A stretch of DNA of 56,690 nt from an uncultured virus (IMG/VR IMGVR_UViG_3300022753_001683). Taxonomy: Duplodnaviria; Heunggongvirae; Uroviricota; Caudoviricetes. Under the pieces are notes generated by a model, which made no database searches, was not told where the DNA came from, and was given only the letters and a program-made list of their open reading frames with translations. Below, in pieces: positions 8,701 through 51,299 of this stretch. Numbering within the stretch: position 1 is the first letter of the stretch; every line of letters begins with the position of its first letter. The DNA lies in the IMG/VR virus record IMGVR_UViG_3300022753_001683; one strand, written 5' to 3'. The position numbers and the translations under genes were made by a program.

Positions 8701-8739
8701 TAAATCGTTTTGCAAATTACCATTTTTCTATTCTGCCAT
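2746..8739 (-). CDS. Large tail/baseplate/receptor-binding protein (~1997 aa), TAG-recoded
   Basis: AAGGAG RBS, ATG at 8739. Track ORFs 7855-8298, 7270-7716, 6016-7233, 5440-5667, 5062-5268, 3805-4698, 3469-3726 and 2785-3138 share one frame and are separated only by TAG (18 counted). First TAA at 2746-2748. Directly follows the tape measure gene. Confidence 0.8.
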
Positions 8740-8822
8740 CCATGTTTCATCTCCTTTTACTCAAAACACTTCTATCTTTTTATAGAAAAATCGTGTGATA
8801 TATTAGCCGAAATAGACCAACC

Positions 8823-8852
8823 AAAAAGAAGGGGTCTCCGAAGAGACCCCTT
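8823..8852 (-). terminator. Intrinsic terminator after the tape measure gene
   Basis: Stem AAGGGGTCTC/GAGACCCCTT with a C(UUCG)G loop on the minus strand, followed by a U-tract. Confidence 0.8.
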
Positions 8853-8859
8853 ATATTTA

Positions 8860-11800
8860 TTAGCGTTTTGAACCAATGTACTGAGCCGCGCGATTAATAA
8901 GATTATCAAAAGCATCTTGGATTTCATTACTATCTTGTACGTTCGGGAATTCTGCGGTAATATGAACTTGTTGTTGCAATTCAGTTTCCTTGGTGGTTTG
9001 GGTAGTTTCTGCATGTAAATTATACATATTAGCTCTTGAAGCTGCGGTTGCCAAATTAATATATTCATCCATCATAGTTAATGTGGCTTGATCAAGTTTA
9101 TTTACTACTTTAACTGTATCAAGCAATTTTTGTGTATCATTTTGATTTAATACTAATTCCGGTCTACTCTTAGTGCCATCAACCCAAGCGGGGCCAGTAT
9201 AATCAGCGAGGCCACCAGTGGCATATTTCTTGCCAGTTTTATCTTTAATTAGATCACCAAGCTTATTGCCAACAATAGCTCCTGCTACGCTAGTGACACC
9301 AGATCCAATGATCGCACCAACTGTGCCACCAACTTTAGAACCTACGCCTCCACCAACAACTCCACCAACAACTGCGCCTAGAACGGCACCAATATTTAAT
9401 CCAGAAGATTTATCTTGTGTACCGGTTCCACCAGTGCCGCCAGTTTTACCACCTGTATCTCCAGTTTTATCATTGTTTTTAGTGGTGGTGGTATCTTTTT
9501 TGGTCGTAGTTGTAGTAGTTTTAGTGGTAGTTGTTGTAGTACTGCCAACACTCGCGCCGGCCAATTTTGCCTAGGCCTAAATAACTTTCTAAATTTCTAA
9601 ATACATTGATTCATAAGTACCAATAACACTATTTAATTTAGAAATATAATTATCCCAAGCTGTTGTAGTAGTATGAATTTGACTTACCTCTTGACGCAGT
9701 GAATCTGTCATTTTTACAGTTTCATTTTTTGCATCTTCTGTTACTTTATCATAAGTATTTACAGATTCGACCATACTACCATAACTAGTATTTGTTAATA
9801 TAGTTACTTCTGCAATTTTAGTTGCATAATCTGACATGGCCTGTTTAATACGATCATAAGCGGTTTCCATTTCATCTCGATAATTATCAGTATCATTAAT
9901 CATTTCACCAATAATTTCAGCAACAGTACCTTTTGTTCTATCTGTAATTTCTTCAACTGCAATACCATAATGATCAGCAATTAATTCATTGGTTGTCATT
10001 GTATTTTCACTAACAATATTATATTGCTCTTGTAAATAACGAGAGCGTTCATAATAATGATCTAAAATCTCATTGATTCTTTGTTGTTTTTGTTCTTCTG
10101 TTAAAGTTTCATCCATAGCAATTTCTTTAATAGCTTCAAGCGTGTCTTGGCGTAATTGTAAAGTTTGATTATAAATATCTTGTTCGTATTCCCAATTGGT
10201 ATCAGCCATTTGCTGAAGTACATCTTCATATTCTTGCTGGGCTTGATTAATAGCATCTTCATCAGCGGTATATTGATATACCATGTTGCCTTCGCTATCA
10301 CGAGTTAAGCGTACAGTACTCTTAGCGTTTTGAGCCTCTTCAAGAGCAATCTACTTAAGAAGAAGTTCATATTTAAGATTCATCATTTCAATTTCATATT
10401 CGCTTAATTCTTTTAATTCACTTTGAGCATTAATTTCATCTTGTAATGCTTTTAATTGCTTTTTATGTACACTAGAAGTTGTGTCGTTGATTGACTGTTG
10501 GATATTACGATTTAACTTACTAATTTCATATAGTTCACGCTGAGAAGAAACATATTGCTCCATTTCTTCCATGTAGAAACCATATTCCTCAGTGAGCCAA
10601 GCAAGATCATTACCCACACCAACCATTGATTCTTCAAGATCTTTCATAATATCTTCGATTGTAGTATCGTACATATCTTTTAAGGCTTGAAGAGTTTCTT
10701 CAGTCTTAGATAGAATATTTGCTTGTACTTCATTCATTGTCTCTTGCAATGCCTCATATTGAATTCGTTCTGTTTCAGTTAATCCTTCCGCAGAGTTCAT
10801 GCGCGCAAGATAATATTGCTCTTCTTCTTTAAGTACATTAAGATAGGACATTTGAGATTCAAGAGAAGCCATATTATAATCATATTGCTTTTCATAGAAG
10901 AATAACAAATCTTCAAATGTTTGTCCTTTACCCATAAGCTGAAGAATAGACATATAAGAGCCCATAGCTTCAGAAGCAGCATCAATTTTTGCAGTATGCT
11001 TGTCAAGTTCTTCACTAGCAAGTTCAAGAGTCTTACCATAAAGTTCTTCAATTGCTTTTTTAGCTTCTTGAATTGCCTCAAGATTATCAAGAATTTGAGA
11101 TTGAATATCCTGTAGACCTGCAACGTAATCAGCTTGATTAAGATCTCCCGCCGCGAATGCAGCTTCAAGTTCTTGACGAGCTGTGGCAAGATAACTTAAA
11201 TTCTATTCTGCGATTTGTCCTTGACGAATATAATTATCCATAAGAAGATCTTGTTTTTCAAGAACTTCATCATATTTATCATTAATATAATCAAGATAAT
11301 CTTTTTCAGCTTCATTAATTTCAACTTTGTATTCGACTTTATATTGAATCTTTTCAAGAGTCTTTTCAGAAATTTGATTCTGCAATTCAAGAATTTCATT
11401 TTGTTTGTCACCAATAAGGTTTAAAGTTTCTTGATATTGATCAATCCATTCCAAGGCTTCTTCAAACCATTCGTCCATTTGCTCTTTTTCTTCTTCCATA
11501 TTTTCTTGAGCAGAAGCATCAGCAGCGTTGTATTTATCAATAAATGCATTGTATTTAGCTAAAATAGAATCCATTAAAGCATCATAATTAGAAATATTCC
11601 CTTCGCCATCAAAAGTAGCACCAAGAGAAGCAACCCTCTATTTGTCAACTGCTAACCATTCTTGGGCCTATCTAATATACTCTTCTTGTAAGCCAATTTC
11701 TTGTTCAATTAAAGAAATTTCTGCTTCTAAATTTTTTAAATAAGATTCTCCATAAACACGCTTTTTAACTTTATCTACTTTTTCTAATGCATCCGCCATA

Positions 11801-17800: not shown

Positions 17801-20235
17801 AAATTAAATAATTGTTCAATTTCTGCTTTTGTTTTATCCCCAGCAAAAGCTTCTTCTAATGATCCAGCGTTGCCTTTAATTTTCGCAACTTGACCATTAA
17901 TTAATTTACTACCTGTTTCTTGTCCAATTCGTTCTAATTCTTTAGCATATTGCAATAGATCTTTTAGAATTTCAGCATCACTACGATTAGATGCAAATAA
18001 TTCTGGTGCTTCAATTGTTCCAAAAGTTTGTTCAATTTGTTTTCCCATATTTTTAACATCTCCAAAAGCTGTAACCAATGTCTAAGCAGAAGAAACCGCC
18101 TAATCAAATGTTAAATTTTCTAAATCCTTAAAACCTAATTTAGTAAAACTAGAACCAAGCTCTTGTGCAAGCTAAGATACGGTTTTTTCAAGTTCTTTAG
18201 TGGAAGTAGCATCTGTTGTAAACTTAACTTTAATATCAGCCGCATCCACTAAAAATTTTTTATTTGCTTCTTCTGTAAATTTTTTCTTTTCTCGCGCATT
18301 TAAATAAGCATAATCCTTATTCTATTTATGAGCTCTAGCTTTAGCTTCTTGACTTACTACTTCATCTACTAATGAAGATTTTTCTTTTTTCATGTTAGTC
18401 TGACGTTTTTGCTCTAATTGCATTAACTCATTTAATGCAGCAATTTGTTCTTGATAAGCTGAAATTACTGCTTTAGCTTGCGCAATTTGTCCTTCTGACA
18501 TATTTTTTGATGCAACTAATAATTGATCTTTTTTCTCAGAAACTTTTAAAGCTGCATTAATTTGCATATCTTGTGATGGATCTAATACTGAACTATCTTT
18601 CTAAATTTTTTGTAACTCTTGACGCATCTGCGCTGAATTTTGTAAAAATCTAGTTTGTTCATTCATTCCAGTAAATGCGTCTTTAATTTTTGTAGTAATT
18701 TTTGTAATACCGTTTGCAATATCATCACTAAAAGCTTGAGTTAATGCACCACCAACAGTTCCGATAATACCAGCGACACCGCCCATACCATCAATTAAGC
18801 CGCCAAGAGTAGTTACAATTTTTTCAATTGCATTAGTCACTCCGACCAAAGCTTTATCATTAATTAAACTACTAAAAATTTTTTCCCAGGCTGCTTGAAC
18901 TCTTCTGGATGCTGCCTCCCAAGATTCTGCTGCAATATCTGCCATTTCTTGTAAAGAACCTTCCGCATTTGTTGCAATAGACATATTGGACTTATACATA
19001 GAAGAATTTTCCATTAAGGCCATCCATTGAGTATATTGTCGTTTACCGGCAATCACTTGTGCTATAGCAGTTTGCTCTGCTCGTCCCATTTCTCCCCATT
19101 TGGCCATTAAATCTTCAATAATTGTTCCCATATCTCTCAATTCGCCGTTAGCATCTAAAATAGATACACCAACTTTTTCTAATTGAGAAGATACTTGTCC
19201 AAGATTTACCCCGTCTTCTAATGTCTCTCCAAGTTTCAAATCACCAATACGAGCAAAAATTGTTTTAAATGCAGTACCAATAGATTCTGCGGATTCACGA
19301 GTAACAGAACTAACTGTAGCAATAATGGAAGAAACTTGCTCCATTGATACACCAACTGTATTAGAAGTTGCAGCTACTTTTTGCATAGAAGTTGCAATTT
19401 CTTCTAAGCTAGTGGCGGTTTTTGCACCAAGGGCTGCCATAATATCTACATATCGTTCAAGTTCATCAGCACCGACTTGATAAGAGTTCCATACTGCAGT
19501 TAAATATTCTGACATTTCTTGTGCAGAAGTATTAAAACTTGAATTAGCTGCCTTAATTGTAATTGCTGCTTTTTTAGCTACCTATTCTGCACTATCGCCC
19601 TATTGAAAATAAATCAAAGATGCATCAGCATATGCTTTAGTGGTTGTAGATAATTCTCTCGCCGCGCGATTAGCCTATACAGCAAATCGAGACATATCTT
19701 CTGCACTTTGTCCAGTAACAATACGAATATTTGTTAAAGAACTATTTAAATCTTTTACATAGGACACAGCTCCAGATAATGCACTTTCTAAACCATGTAC
19801 CATTGTAGAAGATAATTCCCATTTTACTGTATTTTTTAAAGTCTGTCCCCATGCAGCTAATGTGCTATTCATGCGCTTAATTGGTACTTCTGCACTGGCA
19901 ATAACAGAAGCCAATTGTGAAAAAGCTGCTTGACCAGTTTGTCCTGCATCTAATAAAGCATTGCCTAATTGAGTAACAGATGTGCCAGCTTTATTTAAAC
20001 TATTAACAAATGTGTTAAGATTTAATTCACCAGTATTTACATTAGTAGCCTCTTGTAAATGCTTTTTTAAATCTTGCGCAGCTTCAGAAGCTTTTTTAAG
20101 TGCTGAATCTGAAATTGCTACTTCCAAATCCACAGTTGACACTTTATTTAAGCTTTTTTGTAATTCACTTAAAGCTTTTTTAGCCTAAGAGGTGTCAGCA
20201 TTAAATTGTAATGTAAACTATCTGTTTCCAGCCAT
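8860..20235 (-). CDS. Tail tape measure protein (~3791 aa), TAG-recoded
   Basis: AAGGAG RBS, ATG at 20235. Sixteen track ORFs lie in one frame, joined by ~41 in-frame TAGs with no TAA/TGA until 8860. TP901-like TMP region (e.g. SVTRESAESIGTAFKTIFARI), long helical segments, and C-terminal YATGG..YTG..WVDGT..PELVLN motif typical of TMP ends. Confidence 0.9.
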
Positions 20236-27001: not shown

Positions 27002-27022
27002 ATTTTAAAACTCCTTTTACTC

Positions 27023-27050: not shown

Positions 27051-27065
27051 GATATATTTATTTAA

Positions 27066-36367: not shown

Positions 36368-36398
36368 GTATATAGAAATGATAAAGGAGATGACTTCA

Positions 36399-38997: not shown

Positions 38998-39116
38998 ACA
39001 GCGCAAGGTTTAAGAAGCTCGTCAAGAGGAAAGAAAAGCAAGTCTATGCACAGAGGAGGGAAGAGCGATCTTCCCCCTCGAAAAAAAAGATAAAAAAGTT
39101 TGCGGAAAAGGCTTGA
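38994..39116 (+). CDS. Possible 40-aa highly basic peptide
   Basis: ATGA overlap with the previous gene and GGAGG upstream; the stop lies inside the next TTGACA. Confidence 0.35.
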   Translation: MNSARFKKLVKRKEKQVYAQRREERSSPSKKKIKKFAEKA

Positions 39117-39188
39117 CAAATACCCTAAGACGTGCTATACTAATAGTGTCGAAAGGGACAAGACAAAACACAGAAAGAGGTAATGAGA

Positions 39189-39626: not shown

Positions 39627-39661
39627 GTGCAGAGAGCAACAAGAAAGAGAGGTAAATGACT

Positions 39662-39895
39662 ATGGGATTCAGTTATAATAGTTATAATAGTGATAACTCT
39701 GGATGCGCGACTGTGATTGCGGCGCTGATTGTGCTGGCGCTGGTCATCTTCGCTGGGCCATGGGTTGTGCAGATGGGATACAATGCAGTAAAGCTGGACT
39801 TCAACCTGCCTGACCTGAACTACTGGCAGTTCTTCTGGGCTACCAATGCATTGCAGGTTATCTTCAAGACCAATGTTTCCAGTAAGAGCAAGTGA
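39662..39895 (+). CDS. Small membrane protein (77 aa)
   Basis: GAGGT RBS, hydrophobic helix, followed by a terminator at 39901-39938. Confidence 0.65.
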   Translation: MGFSYNSYNSDNSGCATVIAALIVLALVIFAGPWVVQMGYNAVKLDFNLPDLNYWQFFWATNALQVIFKTNVSSKSK

Positions 39896-40084
39896 TAAAT
39901 GAAATGCAGGATGACTCCACACATCCTGCATTTCTTTTCCCTCTGGCCGGCTGGTGCACGGGCGCCAAGTCTGTGCACCAGCCGTATTCCCGCACGCATA
40001 GGCCATGCATAATTATTCATCGACAATGCATAAACATACAAAAACAAGCCCCATCCCAAAACAGAGCCACTCTCGTCTTCGCTT

Positions 40085-40300
40085 GCGCGGGCGGAATTTC
40101 ACCGCCGTGGATGTATGGGGTGGAGTGATCGCGTAGGCTAGGGGGACGATTTGAACGTCTCTTCTACTTGCGTAGCGTGCTAACCGAGCTGACACTACCC
40201 GTTCGCCGCGATCTGGAAGCTCTTGATACCTGCGAGAGTTTTGCCACCGAGTAATCGCGAATCCTCAGTGCCCGTAGTGGTTGTGCTTCCCTCAACCTCT
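40085..40300 (-). ncRNA. Candidate structured ncRNA with a tRNA-like domain lacking an anticodon loop
   Basis: Own TTGACA-17-TATAAT promoter (40335/40312) and no RBS/ORF. Core 40200-40141 has TA-GTGT/GCAC D-arm with GG loop, CTAC(GCAA)GTAG hairpin and GACG(TTCAAAT)CGTC T-arm, enclosed by GATCGCG/CGCGATC. The 3' end is approximate. Confidence 0.65.
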
Positions 40301-40466
40301 GATAGTATTATACTACAAGAGGGATCAAATGTCAATACCTTTTTGCAGAAAAAGAAAAAAAAGTTTTTTTCAAAAACCTATTGACATTCCTGCCCACCTA
40401 TGCTATAATAGTCTCAGTTGGTGAGGGAAACACCGACAAGACAAAATGACAAAGGTGGTAATCACA

Positions 40467-41036
40467 ATGAATGCACTGGAACTGATGGATCTCTACTACG
40501 ACCGCATGTGCGCTTGCACTTCCACTTCTGGACGCAACAACAACTTCAAAAAGATGCTTGCTCTGTGGGAAGAAAATGAAGTTGTTCGTGCGGTTTGGAC
40601 TTTTGTCAAGGATGCCTATTTCATCGTTGATCGGTTTGTCAAGGGCGTTGTTGACAAGGTAAAGTCTTTCTTTAAGCCGACCGCAAACGTGGTTTACTCC
40701 TGCGACAAGGTAGAGGGCAATCAGCTTGTGTATCTCCTGCGGCTGCTTAATGAAGAGGGCAATCTGGTTTGGTCAAAGGTCGGCACGACCACCCGAACCA
40801 TTGAAGAACGCATGAGCGAACACCTGCGCTACTATCGCAAGTATGGTATCAAAACGATCGAAGTTACTAAAGTTTGGGATTGCGGAGAAGTTGACGCAGA
40901 AGGTTTGGAAAGTTTCCTGCGTTCCAAGTACATCCGCAAGCATCCGAACACTTTCCAGAAAAATGATCGTTTCTATCAAGTTGAGTTTGATCTGGAACAG
41001 GCTGAAAAGTGGGTTGACTTCTATCTGAACGATTGA
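40467..41036 (+). CDS. GIY-YIG/T5orf172-like nuclease-domain protein (189 aa)
   Basis: VYLL...KVGTT.R..EERM..H...E motif pattern; own promoter. Confidence 0.55.
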   Translation: MNALELMDLYYDRMCACTSTSGRNNNFKKMLALWEENEVVRAVWTFVKDAYFIVDRFVKGVVDKVKSFFKPTANVVYSCDKVEGNQLVYLLRLLNEEGNLVWSKVGTTTRTIEERMSEHLRYYRKYGIKTIEVTKVWDCGEVDAEGLESFLRSKYIRKHPNTFQKNDRFYQVEFDLEQAEKWVDFYLND

Positions 41037-41121
41037 AAAAAAAGTTTGTCAAGGGCGTAAAAACCCCTTGACAAACAGCCCAAGATGCTGTATAATAGTT
41101 AATGTAAAGGAGGTCAAGAAC

Positions 41122-41526
41122 ATGGCTAAGGAACTTCAGTATCCTACCCCTGAGTGGTTGGACGCCATGGTCGATAAGACTGGTTGCTCACTGGAAGAAG
41201 CCGAAATGGCATGGTGGGACAAGCAGATCGACAAGGGCAACCCTACCCCATGGGACTTGCCACCCGAGCAAGAGAAGGAAGCACGCAAGGCGAACCGACC
41301 CAAGGCTCACAAGGTGGTTGACCCTGCAGGCAAGACCCGAACCCGAGAACGCAAGCCCAACGAGGACAAGCGACTATTGGTGGACTGCCTGCACGACGCA
41401 TTGAAGGACTTTGACAACTGCGAGGTTGTCAACCCCGAGCGTCAAGTGGACTTTGTGCTGAACGGCGTTTCCTATTCGGTTACGCTGACCGCCCACCGAC
41501 CCCCCAAGGACAAGGGGAAGGGCTGA
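41122..41526 (+). CDS. Hypothetical early protein (134 aa), paralog of 47934-48407
   Basis: AAGGAGG RBS; shared RERKPNE.KR.L...VNPER...F......YSVTLT.HR motif. Confidence 0.8.
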   Translation: MAKELQYPTPEWLDAMVDKTGCSLEEAEMAWWDKQIDKGNPTPWDLPPEQEKEARKANRPKAHKVVDPAGKTRTRERKPNEDKRLLVDCLHDALKDFDNCEVVNPERQVDFVLNGVSYSVTLTAHRPPKDKGKG

Positions 41527-41677
41527 TACCCTTCCCCAAGCCCCGAAAAAAAACTTGAAAAAAGTTTCAAAAAGGGCTTGACAAACCGACCGACCTGTGG
41601 TATACTTAAGATGTTCCAAGGGAAGGAACAAAACAAAACGACAGCGCCAAGAGCGCGGAAAGAAAGAGGTAATCGCT

Positions 41678-42046
41678 ATGACTACTATCAATGTGAAGAA
41701 TGAGAAGCTGACCTACGTGACCGCCCTGACCTACGCCATTGAGAACGGCAACCTGCCCACCGAGATCGCGGAAAAGCTGATTGCCCTGCGTACTCAGCAG
41801 GAGAAGCGTAACAGCGGTGAGAAGAAGCCGACCAAGGTTCAGGAAGCCAACGTTGGCATCAAGCAGGTTATCCTGACTGCCCTTGAGGGTCAGGAAGCCA
41901 AGACCGTAAGCGAGATTCAGACCCTTGCTCCCGAGCTGGGCGAGCTGAGCAATCAGAAGGTTGCAAGCCTTGTCCGTCAGCTTGTGGAAGAGGGCAAGCT
42001 GACCCGAATCGAGGAGAAGCGCAAGGCGTATTTCCGCCTTGCCTGA
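41678..42046 (+). CDS. Winged-helix DNA-binding protein, paralog 1 of 3 (122 aa)
   Basis: KKPTKVQEAN..TVSEI...LSNQKVASLVRQLVEEGKL.R.EEKRKAYF. Confidence 0.75.
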   Translation: MTTINVKNEKLTYVTALTYAIENGNLPTEIAEKLIALRTQQEKRNSGEKKPTKVQEANVGIKQVILTALEGQEAKTVSEIQTLAPELGELSNQKVASLVRQLVEEGKLTRIEEKRKAYFRLA

Positions 42047-42167
42047 CCCTCGCGGGGTGGTGAAAAAAACTTTCACCACCCCGAAAAAACCCCTTGACAA
42101 CCTGCCTATCCTGTGCTATAATAGTATCAACGAAAGGGCAAGAGCCCGAACAACGAGGAGGATCCCC

Positions 42168-42425
42168 ATGAAGAACACCATCGCTGCCACCCTGATCGCC
42201 AACTACGGTTTCGAAGCCCAGTCCAACTGCCTGTTCACTGGCAAGGGCTCTTGGCTGGCCTCTCACGAGACCGTCAAGGTCACCTTCCACGGTGACATGG
42301 TCACCATCGACCACTACCGCTTCTTCTGGGATGGCGGTGATGTGGAGTGGGAACGCTCCACGGTGGTCACCTGCCACCTCTCCCGACTGTGGGAGAACCT
42401 CCCCGAGTGGGTGCTCAGAGCCTGA
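42168..42425 (+). CDS. Hypothetical early protein (85 aa)
   Basis: Own promoter, GAGGAGG RBS, downstream terminator. Confidence 0.7.
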   Translation: MKNTIAATLIANYGFEAQSNCLFTGKGSWLASHETVKVTFHGDMVTIDHYRFFWDGGDVEWERSTVVTCHLSRLWENLPEWVLRA

Positions 42426-42622
42426 GCCCCACTCTTTTTTTATTCGCCGGCGCGTGGGCGGGCGCTGCGCTTGCCCACTCGCCGAATTTCCGCGAGGAGC
42501 ACCAGCCAGCAAAAAATAATTTGAAAAACTTGCAAAAAAGGTATTGACAAATCATCCCGAATCTGCTATAATTAAACCATCGAAAGGGAACACAGAGTCC
42601 CAACAGAAAGGAAGTTACTACT

Positions 42623-42874
42623 ATGATGACTGCCAAAGAAGCTAAGACCATGACCACCAACTACCTGACCGCCGAAGCTGACAAGCACCTGCAGAAGATT
42701 GAAGACACCATTCAGATCTATGCCAGCAAGGGCAACACCTCCATGTATTACAGCAATGGTCTCAGCGGTGCCGACCCTCGCATCCAGTCCAAGGTATACA
42801 ACACTATGGTTGAAGCAGGTTACAAGGTTCGTTGGTGTGAATCCAGCCTGCACATCAGCTGGGCAGATGCCTAA
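42623..42874 (+). CDS. Hypothetical early protein (83 aa)
   Basis: Own promoter and AAGGAAG RBS. Confidence 0.7.
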   Translation: MMTAKEAKTMTTNYLTAEADKHLQKIEDTIQIYASKGNTSMYYSNGLSGADPRIQSKVYNTMVEAGYKVRWCESSLHISWADA

Positions 42875-42959
42875 AAAAAGTTGCTCAGAGGGGTTGACAA
42901 ATCCCTCTGAGCATGGTATAATAAGTACATCAAAAGGAACAAGAAAGGAAGTAACTACA

Positions 42960-43298
42960 ATGACTAAGAAGATTTCTCTGAATGACTGGACCTACATCGG
43001 CAAGTACAATCCTGCGGCCAAGTGGCTTCGTCCCCTCTGCTCCTACTCTCTGACCGAAGCTGGTGCCTATTCTGCAGATGGCAACCCCGACTATCGCCGC
43101 GATTGCAAGATTAGCTGGCCTGTGTATCTGCTCCTGTTCCTGCCTGTGCATCTACTTCAGTTGCTGGTGTGCCTGTGGGATGGCGGCTTGAAAGAATTTG
43201 AAATTGCAAGTCGCCACATTGGGCATGATTACATCACTGCACATGGCGACAACAGCGGACGCTATCAGATGGCAAAAGAAATTTGGGAAAAGGCTTGA
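42960..43298 (+). CDS. Hypothetical protein with a hydrophobic segment (112 aa)
   Basis: Own promoter, AAGGAAG RBS before ATG 42960. Confidence 0.7.
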   Translation: MTKKISLNDWTYIGKYNPAAKWLRPLCSYSLTEAGAYSADGNPDYRRDCKISWPVYLLLFLPVHLLQLLVCLWDGGLKEFEIASRHIGHDYITAHGDNSGRYQMAKEIWEKA

Positions 43299-43351
43299 CA
43301 AAGCCTTTCCCCTGTGGTATAATAAATGTATCAAATGAAGGAGTGATAAAC

Positions 43352-43525
43352 ATGGGTATCATGATCGGTGCTATTGTTGCAAGTCAGACCGCTATGAGAG
43401 TGGCGGCAATGAATGCCATGAAAAAAAATCTGGAAAATCAGAAAAAAGCTGTTGACAAACAGCCCAAAGTGTGCTATACTAATAATGTCGAAAGGGACAA
43501 CAGAAAGGAAGGTAAACAAAAATGA
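43352..43525 (+). CDS. Small hypothetical protein (57 aa)
   Basis: Own promoter and AAGGAG RBS; its 3' half overlaps the next promoter. Confidence 0.5.
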   Translation: MGIMIGAIVASQTAMRVAAMNAMKKNLENQKKAVDKQPKVCYTNNVERDNRKEGKQK

Positions 43526-43836
43526 TGAAGATCGAAATGACCAAACACGCTATGGTAGACCGCATTGACCGCTGTGTGTACATTGCACAGAAGATTGGCT
43601 TCGGTGACAAGATTGTGTGCGAAGGTTTCCGCAGAGACAAGGGCACTCGGCAGTGCCTGTCCGAAACTGGTGTGCTGATTGTCAAGATGCCGGAAAGCGA
43701 AACCATGGTGACTGCTTACATTCCCACTCTTGAACAGGCTGGCATGATTTACAAGTCCGCAGGCTTGCACATGCCGAACTGGATGGCACAGAAAATCAAG
43801 AAGAATCAGAAGTATGCAAAGGGCTGTCCTGTGTGA
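43522..43836 (+). CDS. Hypothetical early protein (104 aa)
   Basis: Own promoter and RBS; TKHA..R motif near the N-terminus and VTAY near the end, weakly reminiscent of RelE/BECR-like folds. Confidence 0.65.
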   Translation: MMKIEMTKHAMVDRIDRCVYIAQKIGFGDKIVCEGFRRDKGTRQCLSETGVLIVKMPESETMVTAYIPTLEQAGMIYKSAGLHMPNWMAQKIKKNQKYAKGCPV

Positions 43837-43932
43837 CAGCCCTTTGCAAGAAAAAAATTTTCAAAAAGGTATTGACAACCTGCCGAACCTATGGTATAAT
43901 AAGTACAACGAAAGACGAAAGGAAGTAACACA

Positions 43933-44406
43933 ATGAACACTCTGCTTCTCACCTTCATCCTGCTGAACATCGCCAATGTTATCATTCAGACCGTCAAGAG
44001 CATTGCAACCATCAAATGCGGAAAAGGGGTCGCCGCGATTGTTAACGCTGTTGCCTTCGGACTCTACACTGTGGTCACTGTCTACATGATGTGCGATTTG
44101 CCTCTTGCCACCAAGGCGCTGATTGTCGCAGGCTGTAACCTTGTGGGTGTGTATGTGGTCAAGTATTTTGAAGAAAAGGCAAGAAAAGACAAACTCTGGA
44201 AAGTCGAAGTCACCATTCCTGCCGAACAAGCAGAACAGATGATTGAAGATTGCAAATACTATGGATTCACTTACAACTATGTGAACATCGAAAAGTATTT
44301 CTTGTTTAACTTCTATTGTCCCACTCAGCAGGACAGTCTGAATGTTAAGAAACTGTTACAGAGCTATGATGCAAAATACTTTGTGACTGAAAGCAAAAAT
44401 TTGTGA
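43933..44406 (+). CDS. UPF0316/DUF5698-like membrane protein (157 aa)
   Basis: Three hydrophobic helices (NVIIQTVKSIATIK.GK..AAIVNA) followed by a small soluble domain. Confidence 0.6.
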   Translation: MNTLLLTFILLNIANVIIQTVKSIATIKCGKGVAAIVNAVAFGLYTVVTVYMMCDLPLATKALIVAGCNLVGVYVVKYFEEKARKDKLWKVEVTIPAEQAEQMIEDCKYYGFTYNYVNIEKYFLFNFYCPTQQDSLNVKKLLQSYDAKYFVTESKNL

Positions 44407-44473
44407 GAAAGGGGTTGACAACCCCTCTCACATGTGGTATAATAAGTACATCAAAAGGAAAGAGGTAATGAAC

Positions 44474-44746
44474 ATGAGAGCAACTGGTATTGTAAGAAGA
44501 GTCGATGAACTGGGTCGCATTGTTATCCCCAAGGAAATCCGCAGGAACCTGAACATCAAAGAGGGCGATCCCCTTGAGATGTATCTGGACAAGGAATACG
44601 GGCTTGTGATGAAGCCCTACCATGAAGAGCATCTGAGCTTTGACCGCCTGCAGTCTGAGTGGGAAAGCCTGAGCACCGCAAAGCGGCAGGAACTGATCTG
44701 CGAAATGGTGAACCACCTCGATGACCCCATCCGCTGTGAAGAGTGA
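44474..44746 (+). CDS. AbrB/SpoVT-family transcriptional regulator (90 aa)
   Basis: MRATGIVRRVDELGRIVIPKEIRRNLNIKEGDPLE closely matches the AbrB/SpoVT N-terminal swapped-hairpin domain. Confidence 0.9.
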   Translation: MRATGIVRRVDELGRIVIPKEIRRNLNIKEGDPLEMYLDKEYGLVMKPYHEEHLSFDRLQSEWESLSTAKRQELICEMVNHLDDPIRCEE

Positions 44747-45233
44747 CCGCAAGGTCACTCTTTTTTCGCCCGCGCGCCCACGAGCGTGGGCGCCGGTTTT
44801 CCCGCGTATCCTTCCATTATACCATTTTTCGAGCAATTTGTCAATAGGCAAACTGCACAAACTTTTTCCCGAAACTTTGTGCAATCTGTCAATAGACATT
44901 TGGGGTCTGATACTGTATAATAGATAATGTCAGGAGGGCACTGAGGTGATGCCGAGTGAAGCTGGTCGACAAAACTTCTTCAAAAAAAGTTTTGAAAAAC
45001 CCTTGACAAAGCCGCCAAGATGTGATATACTGATAGTGTCAAGAGGGCAAGGAACTGCAAGAGGAACCCTTCGGCGCTGAAGCGCACAGGATAAAAACTC
45101 AAAAAAAAAGTTTCAAAAACCCCTTGACAAACACCGCAAGGTGTGGTACAATAAGGATGTCGAAAGGGCAAGGCGCCAGCCCCACTCGACAGTCACTAAC
45201 ACCAATCGACAAGAAAGAAAGAGGTAATGAATC

Positions 45234-45587
45234 ATGGAAAAGATGACTTATGTGAAGGCTCTGGAAGTTGCTCTGAACTGCGAAGCTCTGTCTGCCGAAG
45301 TGCGTGAGAAGCTGTCTGCTCTGCGTGACCAGCAGGTCAAGCGTAACTCTGCGGAGAAGAAGCCCACCAAGACCCAGCAGGCGAATGAGGGCGTGAAGTC
45401 CCATGTGCTGGAAGTGCTGGCTTCCTGCGCCCAGCCTGTGACTGTGTCTGAACTGATGCAGGCTGATGAAGAGCTGTCCCAGCTCTCCAATCAGAAGGTC
45501 GCTTCGCTGGTTCGCCAGCTGGTGGAAGCTGGCAAGGTTCAGCGACTGGAAGAGAAGCGCAAGGCTTACTTCACTCTGGTGAAGTGA
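45234..45587 (+). CDS. Winged-helix DNA-binding protein, paralog 2 of 3 (117 aa)
   Basis: Same C-terminal LSNQKVASLVRQLVEAGK..R.EEKRKAYF motif. Confidence 0.75.
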   Translation: MEKMTYVKALEVALNCEALSAEVREKLSALRDQQVKRNSAEKKPTKTQQANEGVKSHVLEVLASCAQPVTVSELMQADEELSQLSNQKVASLVRQLVEAGKVQRLEEKRKAYFTLVK

Positions 45588-45720
45588 CCTTGCGGGGCAG
45601 GGGTAAAACCCTGCCCCATCTTCCCGAAAAAAAGTTTCAAAAAGGTATTGACAAACAGCCCAACATCTGCTATAATAGATAATGTCGAAAGGCAATAGAA
45701 CAAGAAAGAGGTAATGCAAA

Positions 45721-46377
45721 ATGAATCGCCACTTCTACATTCTGATGGATACTGAAACTGCCAACGGTCTGGATTGCCCCATCAACTACAATACCGCATG
45801 GTCTGTAATTGACCAGCACGGCAACACCTACGAAAACTTCAATTTCATCAACCGCGACATTTTCTTTGACCGTCCCGAACTCATGCAGTCCGCATACTAC
45901 GCCCACAAGATTCCGCAGTATCTTGAACAGATTGAACGCGGCGAAATCAAGGTTGCAACGTGGTACGAAATCCGCAAGGCGTTCCGCGACTGTTGCGAAA
46001 AGTACAACATCAAGGCAGTTATCGCCCACAATGCCCGATTCGACTATCGCTCCTGCACGATGACCCAGCGTTACGAAACCTGCTCCAAGTATCGCTACTT
46101 CTTCCCGAAGGGCGTTGAAATTTGGGACACGCTGGCAATGGCTCGTGATGTGGTCGCCCCGATGCCCACTTACCGCAAGTGGTGCGAAACCAACGGTTTC
46201 ACCTTGAAGAACGGACAGCCCCGACTGACCGCCGAAATCCTGTTCCGCTTCATCTCCAAGGACATTGACTTTGTGGAAGAACACAAGGCAATGGAAGATG
46301 TGAACATCGAAAAGGAAATCTTTTGGTACTGCATCCGCAAGCACAAGGCAATGCGTCGAAAGGCTTTCAAGGACTGA
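45721..46377 (+). CDS. DEDDh 3'-5' exonuclease (218 aa)
   Basis: DTET (Exo I), AHNARFD (Exo II), H.A.ED (Exo III). Confidence 0.85.
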   Translation: MNRHFYILMDTETANGLDCPINYNTAWSVIDQHGNTYENFNFINRDIFFDRPELMQSAYYAHKIPQYLEQIERGEIKVATWYEIRKAFRDCCEKYNIKAVIAHNARFDYRSCTMTQRYETCSKYRYFFPKGVEIWDTLAMARDVVAPMPTYRKWCETNGFTLKNGQPRLTAEILFRFISKDIDFVEEHKAMEDVNIEKEIFWYCIRKHKAMRRKAFKD

Positions 46378-46445
46378 AAAAGTCCTTGACAGCCGCCCCA
46401 AAGTGTGATATAATAAGTACATCAAAAGGAAAGAGGTAATTGACC

Positions 46446-46682
46446 ATGACTCAGTTTCAGTATGAAGTAAATGTTTACGAAGAAGACCACGTCCTGTCCT
46501 GCAAGACCAACAATCCCCGCACCGCCTGCCAGTTTATGCTGGATCATGCCGACTGCTATCTTGATGTCATCAACGGTTTTACTGGTGAAGTGCTCGCTGT
46601 GATGAACCATGAGAATGCTTACTGTCAAGAGGATTTCGGGCTGATGCTTCTCGGCTATATGACCGAAACAATTTGGGGCTGA
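46446..46682 (+). CDS. Hypothetical early protein (78 aa)
   Basis: Own promoter, GAGGT RBS, UUCG terminator at 46675-46708. Confidence 0.7.
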   Translation: MTQFQYEVNVYEEDHVLSCKTNNPRTACQFMLDHADCYLDVINGFTGEVLAVMNHENAYCQEDFGLMLLGYMTETIWG

Positions 46683-46952
46683 CCCTTCGGGGTTGGCTCT
46701 TTTCTTTTGAGCCGGTCGTGCGCGGGCCACACGACCGGTTTTTCCGCAATGGGCAGATCTACCAAGAAATTCGCTGAAAATTTGTGCATTTTGCCAATAG
46801 ACATTTTATCCCGAAAGTGGTATACTAATAATGTCAGGAGGGGAGGCCAAGAAACCGAGAGGCGGCCGACTCTCAGGAAGTAGAGGAAGAAAACTTGAAA
46901 AAAAGTTTCCGAAACCTCTTGACAAACCACTGACCCTGTGGTATAATAAGGG

Positions 46953-47049
46953 TGTCAGGTGAGGGAAGCAACTGACAGTCGCTTAGCCAAGGTAGCCTGC
47001 GGAGTGGGTGCGCAACACTCCATGGTTAGACCCTGTGCAAGCGAAGCGA
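46953..47049 (+). ncRNA. Candidate small structured RNA
   Basis: Own promoter (46919/46942), no RBS-ORF. Hairpin TGTCAG/CTGACA, then nested stems TCGCTT/AAGCGA, AGCCA/TGGTT and GGAGTG/CACTCC. Confidence 0.45.
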
Positions 47050-47144
47050 AAAAAAAGTTTGCGAAACCCCTTGACAAACAACTGAATAGGTGCTATAATA
47101 AGAGTGTCCTAAGGGACAAGACAAAAAGAAAGAGGTAATGAATC

Positions 47145-47552
47145 ATGATGAAGTTCACTAAGAAGGTTGCTCTGGAAGTCGCTATCAATGCTATCGAGAA
47201 CTCCACCCTGCCCAACTGGTCTTTCACTGAGGGCGAGGAAACCCTGACCATCTCCAAAGCGGAAGCCATCGAGAAGCTCCAGAAGATGATTGAGCAGTTG
47301 GAGGCTAAGTCCAACGCTCCCAAGAAGCCCACTAAGGTGCAGGAAGCCAACGAGGGTGTCAAGGACATCATCAAGGCTGTGCTGGAAGGTCAGTCCCCCA
47401 TGACTGTCTCCGAAATCATGACCCACTCTGCGGAACTGAGTGCCCTGTCCAACCAGAAGGTCGCCTCTCTGGTGCGCCAGATGGTCGAGGCTGGCGTGCT
47501 GGTTCGCACTGAGGAAAAGCGCAAGGCTTTCTTCGCCCTCGCTCAGGGCTGA
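47145..47552 (+). CDS. Winged-helix DNA-binding protein, paralog 3 of 3 (135 aa)
   Basis: KKPTKVQEANEG..TVSEI..LSNQKVASLVRQMVEAG..R.EEKRKAFF; GAAA terminator at 47557-47584. Confidence 0.75.
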   Translation: MMKFTKKVALEVAINAIENSTLPNWSFTEGEETLTISKAEAIEKLQKMIEQLEAKSNAPKKPTKVQEANEGVKDIIKAVLEGQSPMTVSEIMTHSAELSALSNQKVASLVRQMVEAGVLVRTEEKRKAFFALAQG

Positions 47553-47729
47553 GCCTGAGACCCCGAAAGGGGTCTCTTTTTCTTGGGCTGCTCGCGGACG
47601 GGCGCCGCGAGCAGTTTTCCGCGATACACTAGACCCACCGAAAAATTTTCTTGAAAAATCGGCATTTTAGGGGTTGACAGATTATCCCGAATCTGATATA
47701 ATAGAACCATCGAAAGGAGCTGATCTGAA

Positions 47730-47870
47730 ATGTTCACCTGTCCTGCACTCTGTATCCTTGGTCTGGTTCTCTCTATGTGGGGATTCATCTGGGGTATCTT
47801 CTTCCAGGAATTCCTGTGGCTGTGTGTAGCTGGTTTTGCGCTGGGCTGGATGTTTTCTAAAGATTGTTGA
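47730..47870 (+). CDS. 46-aa hydrophobic (two-TM-like) peptide
   Basis: Own promoter and AAGGAG RBS; MFTCPALCILGLVLSMWGFIWGIFFQEFLWLCVAGFALGWMFSKDC. Confidence 0.6.
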   Translation: MFTCPALCILGLVLSMWGFIWGIFFQEFLWLCVAGFALGWMFSKDC

Positions 47871-47933
47871 AATTAGGGGTTGACAAACTGCCCCAACTGT
47901 GTTATAATAATAATGTCGAAAGGAGCTGATAGC

Positions 47934-48407
47934 ATGGAGTTCAAGGAAGCTATCAAGGCTTACGCTAAAATGATGGGCGTAAGCGAATCGGAAGCGAAGC
48001 AGGATGCCGAAGCTACCATCAAAATGTGGATGACCACCGAAGGCATGACAAGGGAATTTGCGGAAGCCAGCTGGATTGAAGAGCAGGAAGATGCAGACCC
48101 CGAATTGCTGAAACAGATGGAAAAGCAGGCGAAGGAATCTGGCGCAACAAAGGTCAAGGCAAAGCGTGCCCCGAATTACAGTCTGGAAGGACAGAAAAAG
48201 CGGGAACGCAAGCCCAACGAAGAAAAGCGTTCACTGATTGAACAAATCGCCAATGCAATGGAAAGTTTTCATCACATGGATGAAGAAATTCCTGCTTCTG
48301 GTGTGGATTTGGTCGAAATTGTGAATCCTGAACGAGAAATCACCTTCAAAATTGGTGAAAATTGCTACAGTGTGACCCTTACCTGCCATCGCAAGCCGAA
48401 AAAATGA
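47934..48407 (+). CDS. Hypothetical early protein (157 aa), paralog of 41122-41526
   Basis: Own promoter, AAGGAG RBS, shared C-terminal motif. Confidence 0.75.
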   Translation: MEFKEAIKAYAKMMGVSESEAKQDAEATIKMWMTTEGMTREFAEASWIEEQEDADPELLKQMEKQAKESGATKVKAKRAPNYSLEGQKKRERKPNEEKRSLIEQIANAMESFHHMDEEIPASGVDLVEIVNPEREITFKIGENCYSVTLTCHRKPKK

Positions 48408-48581
48408 CAAAATGGGCGAGAAATCGCCCATTTTTTGCTGTTTTTGTCCGGTTTTGTGCGGTTTTACTAGAAAAATCGCATAATTTTTGTTGATTTTGCC
48501 TATTGACAAATGCGGCGGGCTGTGGTATAATAATAGAGGGGAGTTGAGCGGGCCGGTCGCGGGCGATCCGGACCGAATTTC

Positions 48582-49145
48582 CCGATCGGACCTGTATATG
48601 CAAATTTTTCTCTTGAATGCAACTATATGCAACTAATTACCTTGAATCCCGAAACCCCGGTCGGGCCCCGCCGATCGGATAACCGATCGGCTATCATATG
48701 CGCTCGTGCGCGGTGAAAGCGATTCCTCCAGCGCCTCACAAATCAATTCTCTCTGCCCCTCAGCGTAGATCGAACATACCCCGCGCGTTCTCTGGAACAT
48801 GCATATGCTGCGGAATTTGACAAATTGAATTAAATATGATATAATATTTAAAAAAGGCACCTCCGCCGACCGGGAAATTGACAACATAATTTTTTTATGA
48901 TATAATAAAAGTAGAAGGATATAGGCCGACCGGAAAGTCGGCAACAAGAGGAAGGAGATTTGACAAATAAACAAATATATGATATAATACGGTGGGGCAT
49001 ATTTTTACCGATCGGTAATAGATCAAGAGGAGCAAGAGTAAAGAATAGCAAGTGGACGGGCTGGCATATGCGGCATAATATATTGAACTTAATTACGGAC
49101 ACGAGGACGGATAAATGAGTAGAGTAGTCTAGGCCCGATCGGGCC
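48582..49145. repeat. Cluster of CCGAYCGG palindromic octamers
   Basis: CCGATCGG at 48582, 48671, 48683, 49008 and 49135; CCGACCGG at 48866 and 48926; CCGGTCGG at 48657. Confidence 0.7.
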
Positions 49146-49324
49146 ACCCCACTTCCAGAATTTTCCCAGTTTTTACAATTTTATCTATCCTCATCTTCTC
49201 TCCCTTGATTTTTATAAAAAAATTTGCTATAATATATATGTAAAGAATGAGGGAATCGCTTCGCTCTTCCCTCTATCCAATCCTGGGGTCGCTCCCCAGT
49301 GAATATCGAAAGGAGACTCCTTAC

Positions 49325-49930
49325 ATGAATACTTACGAGAATGAAATGATGGCTATGCTTCGTCAGGGTATGTCTATGGACGAGGTTATGAACAAGATGC
49401 GCACTCAGCTGGCCAATGCACAGGCCCAGATCAAGGCTGAAGAGGAAGCTAAGCGTAAGCAGGCTGAAGCTAAGCGCAAGGCCGATAATGAGACCAAGGC
49501 TCAGACTCTGGTTGATCTTTGCAACCGTGCAATGGAGAATAAGCTGACCGCAGCCGATGTCGCTTATGTGCAGCAGCTCTATGCTACTCAGAAGTATCCT
49601 GAGCATGCTCGCATGTTCGCTCAGATGTTTGATGCCAATGAAGTGGATTCCACTATCAAGATGGCAGTTGGCACTATGAGCGCTCTGACTCCTCTGGTCC
49701 ATCTGGCTGGTGCCAAGGATTGGGATGAAGTTCTTGATGAACTTGATGCCAAGGAAATCAAGAATGCTCACGCTCAAGCCAATGCAAAAGTGGATGAAGA
49801 TCTGAAGGAAATGCAGGACCTCTTCGGGCTTCTCTTTGGCCAGGCAAAGCCTGTCCAGAAGCCCGCTCAGCCTACTCCCAAGTCTGACGACACCATTCTG
49901 CGCGACTTCGTAAATTCCATCAATAAGTGA
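49325..49930 (+). CDS. Hypothetical helical protein (201 aa)
   Basis: Promoter TTGATT(49205)-17-TATAAT, AAGGAG RBS before ATG 49325, terminator at ~49929-49960. Confidence 0.75.
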   Translation: MNTYENEMMAMLRQGMSMDEVMNKMRTQLANAQAQIKAEEEAKRKQAEAKRKADNETKAQTLVDLCNRAMENKLTAADVAYVQQLYATQKYPEHARMFAQMFDANEVDSTIKMAVGTMSALTPLVHLAGAKDWDEVLDELDAKEIKNAHAQANAKVDEDLKEMQDLFGLLFGQAKPVQKPAQPTPKSDDTILRDFVNSINK

Positions 49931-49995
49931 AAGAAGGGCTAACGCCCTTCTTTCTTTTTTTATATAAATAAGAAAAAGGGAGGCTAATGCCTCCC

Positions 49996-50457
49996 TTATA
50001 CCTTGCGCTTACCATATTTCTTGGCTTTCTCTTTTCCTTCATTCACAAGTTCTTGCAATCTTGCTGCTCCATCAGATTCATAATTTGCAAGATTCTCTTC
50101 ACTCTCTCGAATAAGAGCCATCAATTTCTTCTCACCCTGTGCAAATAGAGCTTCAACAGTCGCTCTCTCAGTTACAACAGTAGAAGTCTGCTTTGCAGCC
50201 TCCTCTTTCTTATTGCCACGAATCGCAGTACCATATACAATACTATAATGCAGTGGCTTCAAGTCATCTACAGACTTCAGATTAGGAGTAACCTGACCAA
50301 TTATCATACCACCATTAATCAGTCTACGATCTTCACCAATCATCCACATAATATCATTGCGCGCTCTTCCCTGTTCACTAATCTCAAACAGAAACTCTCT
50401 CTTCGGGATTACATAAACTTCCTTACCTCTATAAGCACCAAGACAATCATATGCCAT
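49996..50457 (-). CDS. Hypothetical protein (153 aa)
   Basis: AAGGAGG RBS; terminator GGGAGGC/GCCTCCC plus U-tract at ~49973-49996. Confidence 0.7.
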   Translation of the reverse strand: MAYDCLGAYRGKEVYVIPKREFLFEISEQGRARNDIMWMIGEDRRLINGGMIIGQVTPNLKSVDDLKPLHYSIVYGTAIRGNKKEEAAKQTSTVVTERATVEALFAQGEKKLMALIRESEENLANYESDGAARLQELVNEGKEKAKKYGKRKV

Positions 50458-50579
50458 AACTCATTTTCCTCCTTAAATTTGAGTTTTGAAATCATTTTTT
50501 CATTTGTTCCTCGCACCATGCGATTTTGAAATCATTTTTTGAAAACATTGCCCCACTTATATACGAGGCGGGCGTATAA

Positions 50580-50622
50580 GGTATGGTATACCTCGGAGCG
50601 AAGCGGAGAGGTATACCATACC
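50580..50622. repeat. Perfect 15-bp inverted repeat
   Basis: GGTATGGTATACCTC-13 nt-GAGGTATACCATACC, with no adjacent U-tract. Confidence 0.8.
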
Positions 50623-50705
50623 GCCTATTTTATTCTATTCTATAGGTTACTATTTTTTGTACAAAACTCAGAAATTTTTGTACATTTCATCTAAAATCCG
50701 ATCGG

Positions 50706-51299
50706 TCACTCGGGCAACACATTAGATACTTTGGTAATCACAATATTCGTCTTATCATATTCTACTTGCTGCAATTCATATGTAATCAATCCTAATCTCC
50801 GCAAGATATCAAGGATATCATTGATTACAACATTATTAGAAGTAGTTGATGTTGCTAAGCCAATGCGATTCTTTAACTCTTTATGAGTTACAACAAATGA
50901 TGTTTCACCATTGCCTAAATAACGATTCAAGAGATAGACAAATAGGTTTACAGTATTGCGGTTTAAAGAGTTTACAAGCTGTCTCAAAGTAGTAAATGGA
51001 ACCAACATTGCAGAAGATGCTTGCAACTCTTTTAAGATATATACTTTTCTATCGTCATCTTCTTCTAATAGACCCATTTTTACCAATTGTTTTACATATT
51101 TAGATGCGCTACGACGATCCATTCCAGTTTCATTACCAATATTTACAAATGTAGCAACTTTATATGAAACGCTTCTTGCATCTTGACTATCCCAATCAGA
51201 TTTACATTGAAACCATGCATAAACTAAATCACAATAATTTCTATCTGCCATAATCCCAGCTTCCTTCGGAACTTGTCTTGAATTCTTCTAAATGTTCAA
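50706..51299 (-). CDS. Tandem winged-helix DNA-binding protein, possible replication initiator (197 aa), TAG at codon 4
   Basis: GGAGGAGGTG RBS, then TTG-AAC-ATT-TAG in frame with track ORF 50706-51251. Two wHTH-like segments: IGNETGMDRRSASKYVKQLVKMGLL and ELKNRIGL...INDILDILRRLGLI. Confidence 0.6.

Follow-up and report, generated by a model that had tools for sequence, protein, structure and literature searches.

Placement of reassigned TAG codons in a recoded siphovirus: near-absence from bulk virion proteins, a weak 5' bias and no support for a gate at the first codons

The recoding of stop codons in phages is usually pictured as a timing switch that is either on or off. Borges et al. (bioRxiv 10.1101/2021.08.26.457843) described late-gene recoding as a timing control that delays late proteins, and tested for each gene family the preference for TAG over CAG or CAA. 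The main text of that preprint, supplements aside, does not contain the terms 'N-termin', 'capsid' or 'highly expressed' and holds no analysis of position within genes. The present analysis concerns the placement of in-frame TAG codons in an uncultured virus of the Caudoviricetes (IMG/VR record IMGVR_UViG_3300022753_001683). The analysed stretch of 56,690 nucleotides, called the window, makes up half of a contig of 112,783 bp and represents the late-gene block of a siphovirus that reads TAG as glutamine (Gln), with a genome of ~170 kb and Firmicutes-type ribosome-binding sites. A sequence-only reading of the window had proposed that TAGs near the start of low-copy genes form a translational gate, that TAG number sets stoichiometry, and that bulk proteins are readable in both codes.

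The nearest named phage is phAss-1, whose portal is 36.7% identical over 94% of the length; large Enterococcus and Lactococcus siphoviruses follow it in portal similarity. Among four signature proteins, the phAss-1 report (PMC10607447) mentions TAG for TerL and the tape measure protein (TMP) only, and the available portion of that report states nothing on TAG position or on bulk proteins. In an amber-reassigned Crassvirales genome, the gene for the major capsid protein (MCP) is described as lacking alternative codon usage, and the available part of that preprint ascribes this to pressure for efficient translation (bioRxiv 10.64898/2026.08.21.746148). Models of nonsense errors, that is, ribosome drop-off, hold in the section at hand that the cost grows with the chain already made and with expression level (PMC13271495).

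It seems rather probable, without being secure, that TAG is a costly, leaky codon in this phage family that has been depleted by the cost of premature termination, and that the TAGs at codons 4-6 of some genes are ordinary members of the distribution and not a conserved gate. TAG is read as Gln. In alignments of ten gene families, the residues of six standard-code relatives that faced a TAG in a recoded lineage were Gln in 2131 of 4451 pairs (47.9%), with a background of 4.3%, and long open reading frames (ORFs) emerged only when TAG was read through. No tRNA gene was found in the window or in the whole 112.8-kb contig. A near-identical record (G001; 168.7 kb, portal 99% identical, CheckV 88%) carried 37 Rfam tRNA matches and 33 ARAGORN genes, and one tRNA of this array had the anticodon CUA (CTA in the DNA; L111:7637-7727, minus strand, 91 nt). 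By coordinate arithmetic, the array lies ~10 kb past the right end of the focal contig, on the early-gene strand. The extra (variable) arm of the tRNA(CUA) is long, an unusual trait in a Gln-type tRNA, and the D and anticodon arms of this tRNA are similar to those of the phage's own tRNA-Gln(CUG). Its acceptor stem shows G2:C71 and G3:C70, a mismatched first pair and a G preceding CCA, features which may represent Gln identity elements.

The genes of bulk virion proteins were nearly devoid of TAG. The sequence-only reading had described the capsid, decoration, scaffold and tube genes of the window as free of TAG, and indeed none of their 51 Gln codons was TAG. The TAG share in the TAG-bearing genes of the window was 95 of 444, so that by our own arithmetic the probability of finding none among 51 is ~5e-6. 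Gene roles in the window were assigned from PHROG matches and Pfam; the names capsid, decoration and scaffold rest on gene order, size and the sequence-only reading, and PHROGs label those families as 'unknown function'. A portal search returned 298 relatives, and the best 80 of these 298 were used. They fell into 53 clusters, 30 of which were clearly recoded, and six well-covered clusters with at most one TAG each served as the standard-code comparison set. Across up to 30 recoded lineages, TAG made up 1 of 287 Gln codons in the decoration family, 4 of 259 in MCP and 1 of 147 in the 196-amino acid (aa) protein of the head block, and the tube-like family had 2 of 187 over 18 recoded lineages. 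Pooled, these four bulk virion families used TAG at 8 of 880 Gln codons; ten other families ranged from 0.21 to 0.47. The scaffold-like family used it at 25 of 205 (0.12).

The four TAG-poor genes also preferred CAG, with shares of 0.55-0.83 among recoded and 0.45-0.80 among standard-code relatives (scaffold-like: 0.40 and 0.28, respectively). Because the preference is also present in standard-code relatives, the codon adaptation of these four genes predates recoding or is independent of it. Among late-strand genes in general, TAG share fell with CAG preference (negative rho) in each of the 14 genomes, and nine of these reached p<0.05.

Early genes lacked TAG. As the sequence-only reading had it, no credible plus-strand gene carried a TAG; TAG-bearing plus-strand ORFs of at least 100 aa looked spurious, for example the one at 49987-50529, which is low-complexity and antisense to a minus-strand ORF. 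TAG was strongly depleted on the plus strand between 38000 and 50000, where it occurred 51 times and CTA 129 times. TAG was also rare as a stop, terminating 1 of 39 plus-strand stop-to-stop frames longer than 80 codons. In the standard-code replication module on the other half of the contig, the genes for DNA polymerase, NrdD, helicases and primase contained no TAG. Thus, TAG is absent from both high-copy and early genes as claimed, but TAG-free status is not limited to them. Genes beyond the window also went without TAG, namely those for a 2437-aa protein with 78 Gln codons, for three fibre-like and two radical-SAM proteins, and for the holin; the endolysin had three TAGs. The idea that TAG dosage works as a stoichiometry dial found no support, since TAG share in the TAG-bearing genes did not follow the expected copy number. 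The avoidance of TAG in bulk proteins across the family is real, yet it is foreshadowed in print.

Within genes, TAG leaned weakly toward the 5' end. Position was analysed over the full length of 13 long contigs of recoded relatives, taken from the 80 used, with 380 TAG-bearing genes that have a good Shine-Dalgarno (SD) sequence. TAG was in excess in codons 11-50 relative to codons 51-200 (248 observed vs 203.6 expected, Z 4.7), in codons 51-100 relative to 101-300 (222 vs 189.4) and in codons 51-200 relative to 201-600 (357 vs 332.5). Among genes of 250 aa or longer, TAG made up 0.30 of the Gln codons at codons 2-10, 0.37 at 11-25, 0.43 at 26-50, 0.30 at 51-100, 0.28 at 101-150 and 0.24 at 151-250. 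The ortholog-anchored share followed a similar course over successive position bins (0.28, 0.40, 0.41, 0.32, 0.30, 0.25). When all 60 codons having synonyms were treated identically, TAG ranked first of 60 in the comparison of codons 11-100 with 101-300 (458 vs 385 expected, Z 6.2; next codon Z 3.5) and 28th of 60 at codons 2-10. The effect size at codons 11-100 was ~1.2-fold. The same 5' bias was seen in TAGs that follow the first TAG of their gene (247 vs 209.2 expected), which suggests a general cost gradient and not a switch at the first TAG. The 'cheap abort' logic of the sequence-only reading, by which translation stops cheaply at the N-terminus before the code switch, gained support in a weakened version, as TAG was the most 5'-enriched codon and was near-absent from bulk proteins.

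Several trivial causes of the bias were considered and rejected. AT-richness of 5' ends would not explain it, as TAG against CAA gave Z 4.4, CAA against CAG gave Z 0.7, and reading frame +2 gave nothing; a control in reading frame +1 gave a weaker signal (Z 1.9-2.7). 'Younger' Gln codons in faster-evolving N-termini were excluded by similar TAG shares (0.294, 0.315 and 0.318) across conserved, mixed and non-Gln columns. A dilution of TAG by swapped distal domains was avoided by limiting the comparisons to codons up to 200-300.

Is there a positional signal at all? One view is that TAG is distributed at random among Gln codons and that the 5' excess of the family comes from relatedness or annotation. 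Single-genome effects were mostly below Z 2, the early clustering in the window (described below) had p of 0.01-0.03 at post hoc thresholds, and the other half of the genome showed nothing. Furthermore, permutation by alignment column, a test that tolerates shared ancestry, gave p=0.52 up to codon 6, 0.85 up to codon 10 and 0.34 up to codon 25, and reached 0.02-0.05 only at codons 26-50, in six tests without correction. Random placement is nevertheless unlikely, because TAG was the top outlier among the 60 codons on the same related genomes and observed counts exceeded expected ones in 13 of 14 genomes. A subset with strict start sites gave a similar ratio (162 vs 134.1, own sums), and the fact that codons 2-10 had no excess speaks against wrongly extended starts. 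The single new element of this analysis is a weak 5' bias that is specific to TAG and extends over the family.

In the window itself, TAG did cluster near gene starts. An ORF scan (at least 100 aa, TAG read as Gln) found 12 TAG-bearing ORFs on the minus strand, in agreement with the 12 recoded genes of the sequence-only reading. Its count of seven genes with a first TAG near the start also stood: all seven had it by codon 23 and four had it at codons 4-6 (Table 1), and a check of the plus strand confirmed CTA at each of the nine early TAG positions. Chance was assessed by the test which that reading had proposed, a within-gene permutation over Gln codons. The first TAG lay by codon 25 in seven genes vs 3.49 expected (p=0.012), four TAGs lay by codon 6 vs 1.62 expected (p=0.031), and the summed log position gave p=0.012. 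The clustering was thus seen, but only marginally: since the thresholds were picked after seeing the data, these p-values are weak. Against an any-codon null, p fell to 0.001-0.005, and this lower value implies that part of the effect is the abundance of Gln in these N-terminal regions. No early clustering was seen in the eight late genes beyond the window that carry TAG (p 0.15-0.5). By itself, the early clustering in the window is weak evidence.

Table 1. Features of the window and one gene beyond it, with strand and TAG content (window coordinates unless a contig is named)
Feature	Coordinates	Strand	TAG codons and remarks
Tail gene, 1997 aa	2746-8739	minus	first TAG at codon 4 (8728..8730)
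TMP, 3791 aa	8860-20235	minus	41 TAGs; codons 6 and 17 (20185..20220)
Tube-like virion protein	22825-23757	minus	TAG-free; CAA 1, CAG 12
Gene with 16 Gln codons	23783-24529	minus	11 of the 16 are TAG; first TAG at codon 21 (24467..24469)
Head block (196-aa protein, MCP-like, decoration-like, scaffold-like)	26411..30276	minus	TAG-free
MCP-like	27066-28112	minus	TAG-free
Decoration-like	28136-28840	minus	TAG-free
Scaffold-like	28867-30276	minus	TAG-free
Portal	30292-31899	minus	first TAG at codon 5 (31885..31887)
terL-like, 580 codons	32282-34024	minus	only two TAGs, at codons 14 and 32 (33929..33985)
Sigma-like, heads the late block	35204-36274	minus	first TAG 36206..36208, codon 23 from TTG at 36274
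Small early-type genes	from 36366	plus	
Early-type genes, including a GC-rich island of small ORFans	36366..50000	plus	no in-frame TAG
Winged helix-turn-helix (wHTH) gene	50706-51299	minus	single TAG at codon 4 (51288..51290)
Leucine-rich repeat (LRR)-bearing late protein, 2437 aa	L124:8293-15606 (own contig, outside the window)		TAG-free

The early TAGs are not in general an extension of ORFs past the true start. SD sequences of the AAGGAG type precede the starts of the tail, TMP, portal, terL and wHTH genes by 6-11 nt, which argues against that explanation for these five. The tail gene has an ATG start with AAGGAGA 11 nt upstream, the TMP gene has an SD 9 nt upstream, the portal gene has a TTG start with AAGGAGG 8 nt upstream, and the wHTH gene has a TTG start with GGAGGAGG 9 nt upstream. 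The N-termini of portal, terL and TMP, including their TAG sites, also align with those of relatives, among them standard-code ones for portal and terL, and this homology additionally excludes a start artefact for these three. A start-codon artefact may apply to the sigma-like gene and in part to the wHTH gene, which has an alternative ATG at codon 17. In the sigma-like gene the SD touches the TTG, which leaves the start ambiguous; the codon 20 given for the first TAG of this gene in the sequence-only reading holds only if an ATA start is assumed, and the tabulated position applies from the TTG.

The relatives did not show a TAG excess at the first codons. In the 13 relatives, TAG occupied 21 Gln codons at codons 2-6 vs 24.4 expected and 49 at codons 2-10 vs 48.9, and the first TAG lay by codon 6 in 21 genes vs 23.1 expected. 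For ortholog tests, genes with less than 60% query coverage or with a start more than three codons off the aligned start were excluded. In the resulting 205 start-anchored gene-by-lineage strata from 30 recoded lineages, TAG counts were 19 vs 20.6 expected up to codon 6, 22 vs 29.2 up to codon 10 and 80 vs 79.2 up to codon 25, and permutations of the first TAG in orthologs gave the same outcome. The early TAGs were also not particularly conserved. Contrary to what a gate would lead one to expect, they were kept in 20% of aligned recoded lineages (six sites up to codon 35), and later TAGs in 18% (18 sites). Near-identical strains had zero codon differences across 15 genes and hence offered no usable polymorphism.

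Inspection of single columns gave a consistent picture: the early TAGs of the window occupy Gln sites at which relatives swap among TAG, CAA and CAG. The codon-5 TAG of the portal is a conserved Gln within an R-Q-(D/E)-x-I motif, and other recoded lineages have TAG in 5, CAA or CAG in 17 and a different residue in 7 at this column. At codon 21 of the gene at 23783-24529, Gln was found in four of five aligned standard-code relatives, and the other recoded lineages had TAG in 9 and CAA or CAG in 9. The codon-14 and codon-32 TAGs of terL are each TAG in three other recoded lineages, and a conserved Gln at codon 4 of terL is TAG in several relatives instead. The column of the first TAG in the sigma-like gene held TAG in 5, Gln in 7 and another residue in 8 recoded lineages. 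In five distinct relatives of the TMP, TAG was found at the equivalent of codon 6/7 in two and at the equivalent of codons 17-19 in two; the remaining relatives had a non-TAG Gln codon or another residue at these sites. These early TAGs are unremarkable because ~40% of the Gln codons in the TMP relatives are TAG. Selection for an early TAG specific to the TMP was rejected, as the excess in the window and the five relatives was not significant (10 vs 6.98 expected, Z 1.5). Searches for relatives of the tail N-terminus and of the wHTH protein returned near-identical genomes only. Thus, a gate at the first few codons is not supported as a property of the phage family, and the four TAGs at codons 4-6 are most likely a matter of chance acting on conserved N-terminal Gln residues.

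A narrower role for early TAGs is possible, though unlikely: TAG would be leaky throughout infection and graded by abundance and position, and only a few early TAGs in regulators (wHTH, sigma-like) would be true switches. If so, the regulator TAGs would tie late transcription to the expression of the phage tRNA(CUA), and bulk proteins would be gated one step upstream, so that they would not need TAG. The general gate of the sequence-only reading is improbable. It can draw on the clustering in the window, on the first TAG lying by codon 25 in 129 genes of the 13 relatives vs 106 expected (p=0.0003), on the wHTH regulator having its sole TAG at codon 4, on a sigma-like gene that carries TAG in 23 of 23 recoded lineages, and on a tRNA(CUA) co-oriented with the early genes. 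What weighs more is the missing excess at codons 2-6 and 2-10 in relatives and orthologs and the equal conservation of early and late TAGs. Moreover, a gate at the first TAG does not predict the 5' bias of later TAGs, TAGs exist at the extreme C-terminal ends of the tail protein (codon 1985 of 1997) and the portal (529 of 535), and the 2437-aa protein, large and presumably of low copy number, is TAG-free.

The 2437-aa protein is better accounted for by history. Its 882 database homologs of similar length mostly contain a BspA-type LRR domain (PF13306), and a search for its relatives returned near-identical genomes only. Homologs in five recoded relatives carried 3-19 TAGs and were 27-53% identical over the matched stretches, while the portals of the same five relatives were 61-77% identical; the closest database homologs (50-69% identity) are predicted to be full-length. 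It is likelier that this gene owes its TAG-free state to history, and the pattern suggests a swapped host-range module. As an account of the TAG-free genes at large, a recent import from standard-code phages in which TAG has not yet accumulated is quite improbable. For the head and tube genes such an import was rejected, as they are TAG-free in 18-23 recoded lineages and closer to recoded than to standard-code relatives, and the identity of the four TAG-poor genes to the window tracks portal identity (rho 0.58-0.75).

In a classical codon ramp, slow codons within the first 30-50 codons space out ribosomes. That TAG serves as such a slowly decoded codon is improbable: the excess does peak at codons 26-50 and has faded by ~codon 150, and A-ending Lys and Glu codons also lean 5' (Z 3.0-3.6 for codons 51-100 vs 101-300), but codons other than TAG show far weaker effects and slow decoding at TAG is assumed.

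How could the cost of premature termination shape the placement of TAG? Under this favoured explanation, the phage tRNA that reads TAG would compete with host release factor 1, and every TAG would end some chains prematurely, before the arrival of the tRNA as well as after it. This cost would rise with protein output and with the length of the discarded chain, or with a folded fragment that may poison assembly. TAG removal would then be complete in early genes, where the tRNA is not yet present, and nearly complete where output is huge, as for capsid, decoration and tube. It would be slightly stronger further into a gene, where the truncated product would reach longer. Some TAG-free late genes would derive from history, as modules swapped in from TAG-poor phages. 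From a termination cost one would expect early genes to lack TAG, bulk virion proteins to contain almost none, and TAG to lean mildly toward roughly the first hundred codons of a gene.

A number of points weigh against this explanation. The absence of an excess at codons 2-10 fits the cost model imperfectly. The gradient was flat past ~200 codons (365 vs 373.4 expected in codons 201-600 relative to 601 onward), which is a poor fit because a cost proportional to length would make the share fall on. Much of the positional signal was supplied by a single relative, G004, without which the excess at codons 11-50 relative to 51-200 was 211 vs 181.5 expected (Z 3.3). The Z-scores ignore the shared ancestry of the relatives, and gene calls and starts in the relatives came from our own SD-based caller. 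The focal genome by itself had four TAGs at codons 2-6 vs 2.1 expected and nine at codons 11-50 vs 8.4, and hence does not clearly display the pattern of the family. Expression levels were deduced from protein role and codon bias, and release-factor competition and the leakiness of suppression are postulated. In addition, the tail tube is preferentially recoded in crAss-like phages according to the main text of Borges et al., and the capsid is among the proteins found with code-15 predictions in the portion at hand of another report (PMC9523058). These data suggest that the avoidance of TAG in bulk proteins is not universal among recoded phages.

Once TAG is opened as sense, positions 1 to 36274 of the minus strand form a single unbroken late-gene block. 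Its order is sigma-like, terL-like, HNH nuclease, portal, scaffold-like, decoration-like and MCP-like genes, then connector-size proteins, the tube-like virion protein, the TMP and the tail protein. The TMP contains a Gly run and Thr-rich stretches, and its length implies a very long tail. A gene resembling HNH or homing endonucleases lies between terL and portal (31913-32269; one TAG), and another one (37087-37905, plus strand; no TAG) adjoins the divergent promoter region. Besides the replication module, the other half of the contig holds further same-strand genes for tail, fibre and lysis functions. The window differs from the genome contig by two bases near its right end, at 56537 and 56564.

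The early region has features of its own. A 12-kb island (38000-50000) has a GC content of 0.46-0.50, compared with 0.29-0.42 elsewhere in the genome, and is tiled with small plus-strand ORFs, almost all of which lack PHROG matches; an antitoxin-like ORF (44432-44746) lies inside it. Amid the early genes, a leftward operon on the minus strand (50532-51693) comprises a 62-aa ORF, a 68-aa ORF, the wHTH gene and a 52-aa ORF, and the stop of the 68-aa ORF overlaps the wHTH start at TTGA. The ORFs of this operon are the only TAG-bearing ones of the early region: the 68-aa ORF has TAG at codon 10 and the 52-aa ORF at codons 17 and 22, besides codon 4 of the wHTH gene. In the late block outside the window (L125:3524-9457, own contig), two radical-SAM proteins of 470 and 462 aa come directly after a pair of low-complexity proteins (538 and 497 aa) in which Tyr, Ser, His, Asn and Thr abound; the arrangement looks like a set of substrates and modifying enzymes. 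Among the relatives, G016 (193 kb) has 71 tRNA matches, and G014 is a provirus according to the IMG/VR classification and might point to the host of the phage family.

If TAG use is graded by abundance and position, suppression would be imperfect and costly, which would limit how the code switch works. Graded TAG use would also provide a sequence-only gauge of suppression efficiency that can be compared across recoded clades. A note of caution follows for single genomes: a cluster of early TAGs can stem from a few conserved N-terminal Gln residues, and relatives are needed before design is inferred.

Comparison with described systems places this phage among the recoded phages known so far. A gene-level bias of TAG is already published, and a literature search, with preprint supplements outside its scope, found no analysis of the placement of recoded stops within genes. 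The Crassvirales observation on the MCP gene, in the part of that preprint at hand, concerns a single genome of an unrelated phage order and comes without a family-wide count, other bulk proteins or an analysis of position. The logic of nonsense-error cost predicts both patterns seen here, bulk avoidance and position. The models, as given in the available section, treat rare drop-off at ordinary cellular codons, whereas the present case is a reassigned stop codon in a virus, and the gradient here, unlike theirs, flattens after ~200 codons. The focal phage resembles phAss-1, a distant relative, and the proposed Phassvirus group in having a large genome and tens of tRNAs including tRNA-Sup-CTA, and in carrying TAG in TerL and the TMP; unlike the focal phage, phAss-1 uses TAG in its unusual 1665-aa capsid-like protein (PMC10607447, in the portion available). 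It also resembles the code-15 phages of the main text of Borges et al. in its TAG-bearing structural and lysis genes, standard-code replication genes, suppressor tRNA and low-GC genome. It differs from the crAss-like phages of that text, in which lysis genes are preferentially recoded together with the tail tube: here the tube and the holin are TAG-free and the endolysin carries its three TAGs.

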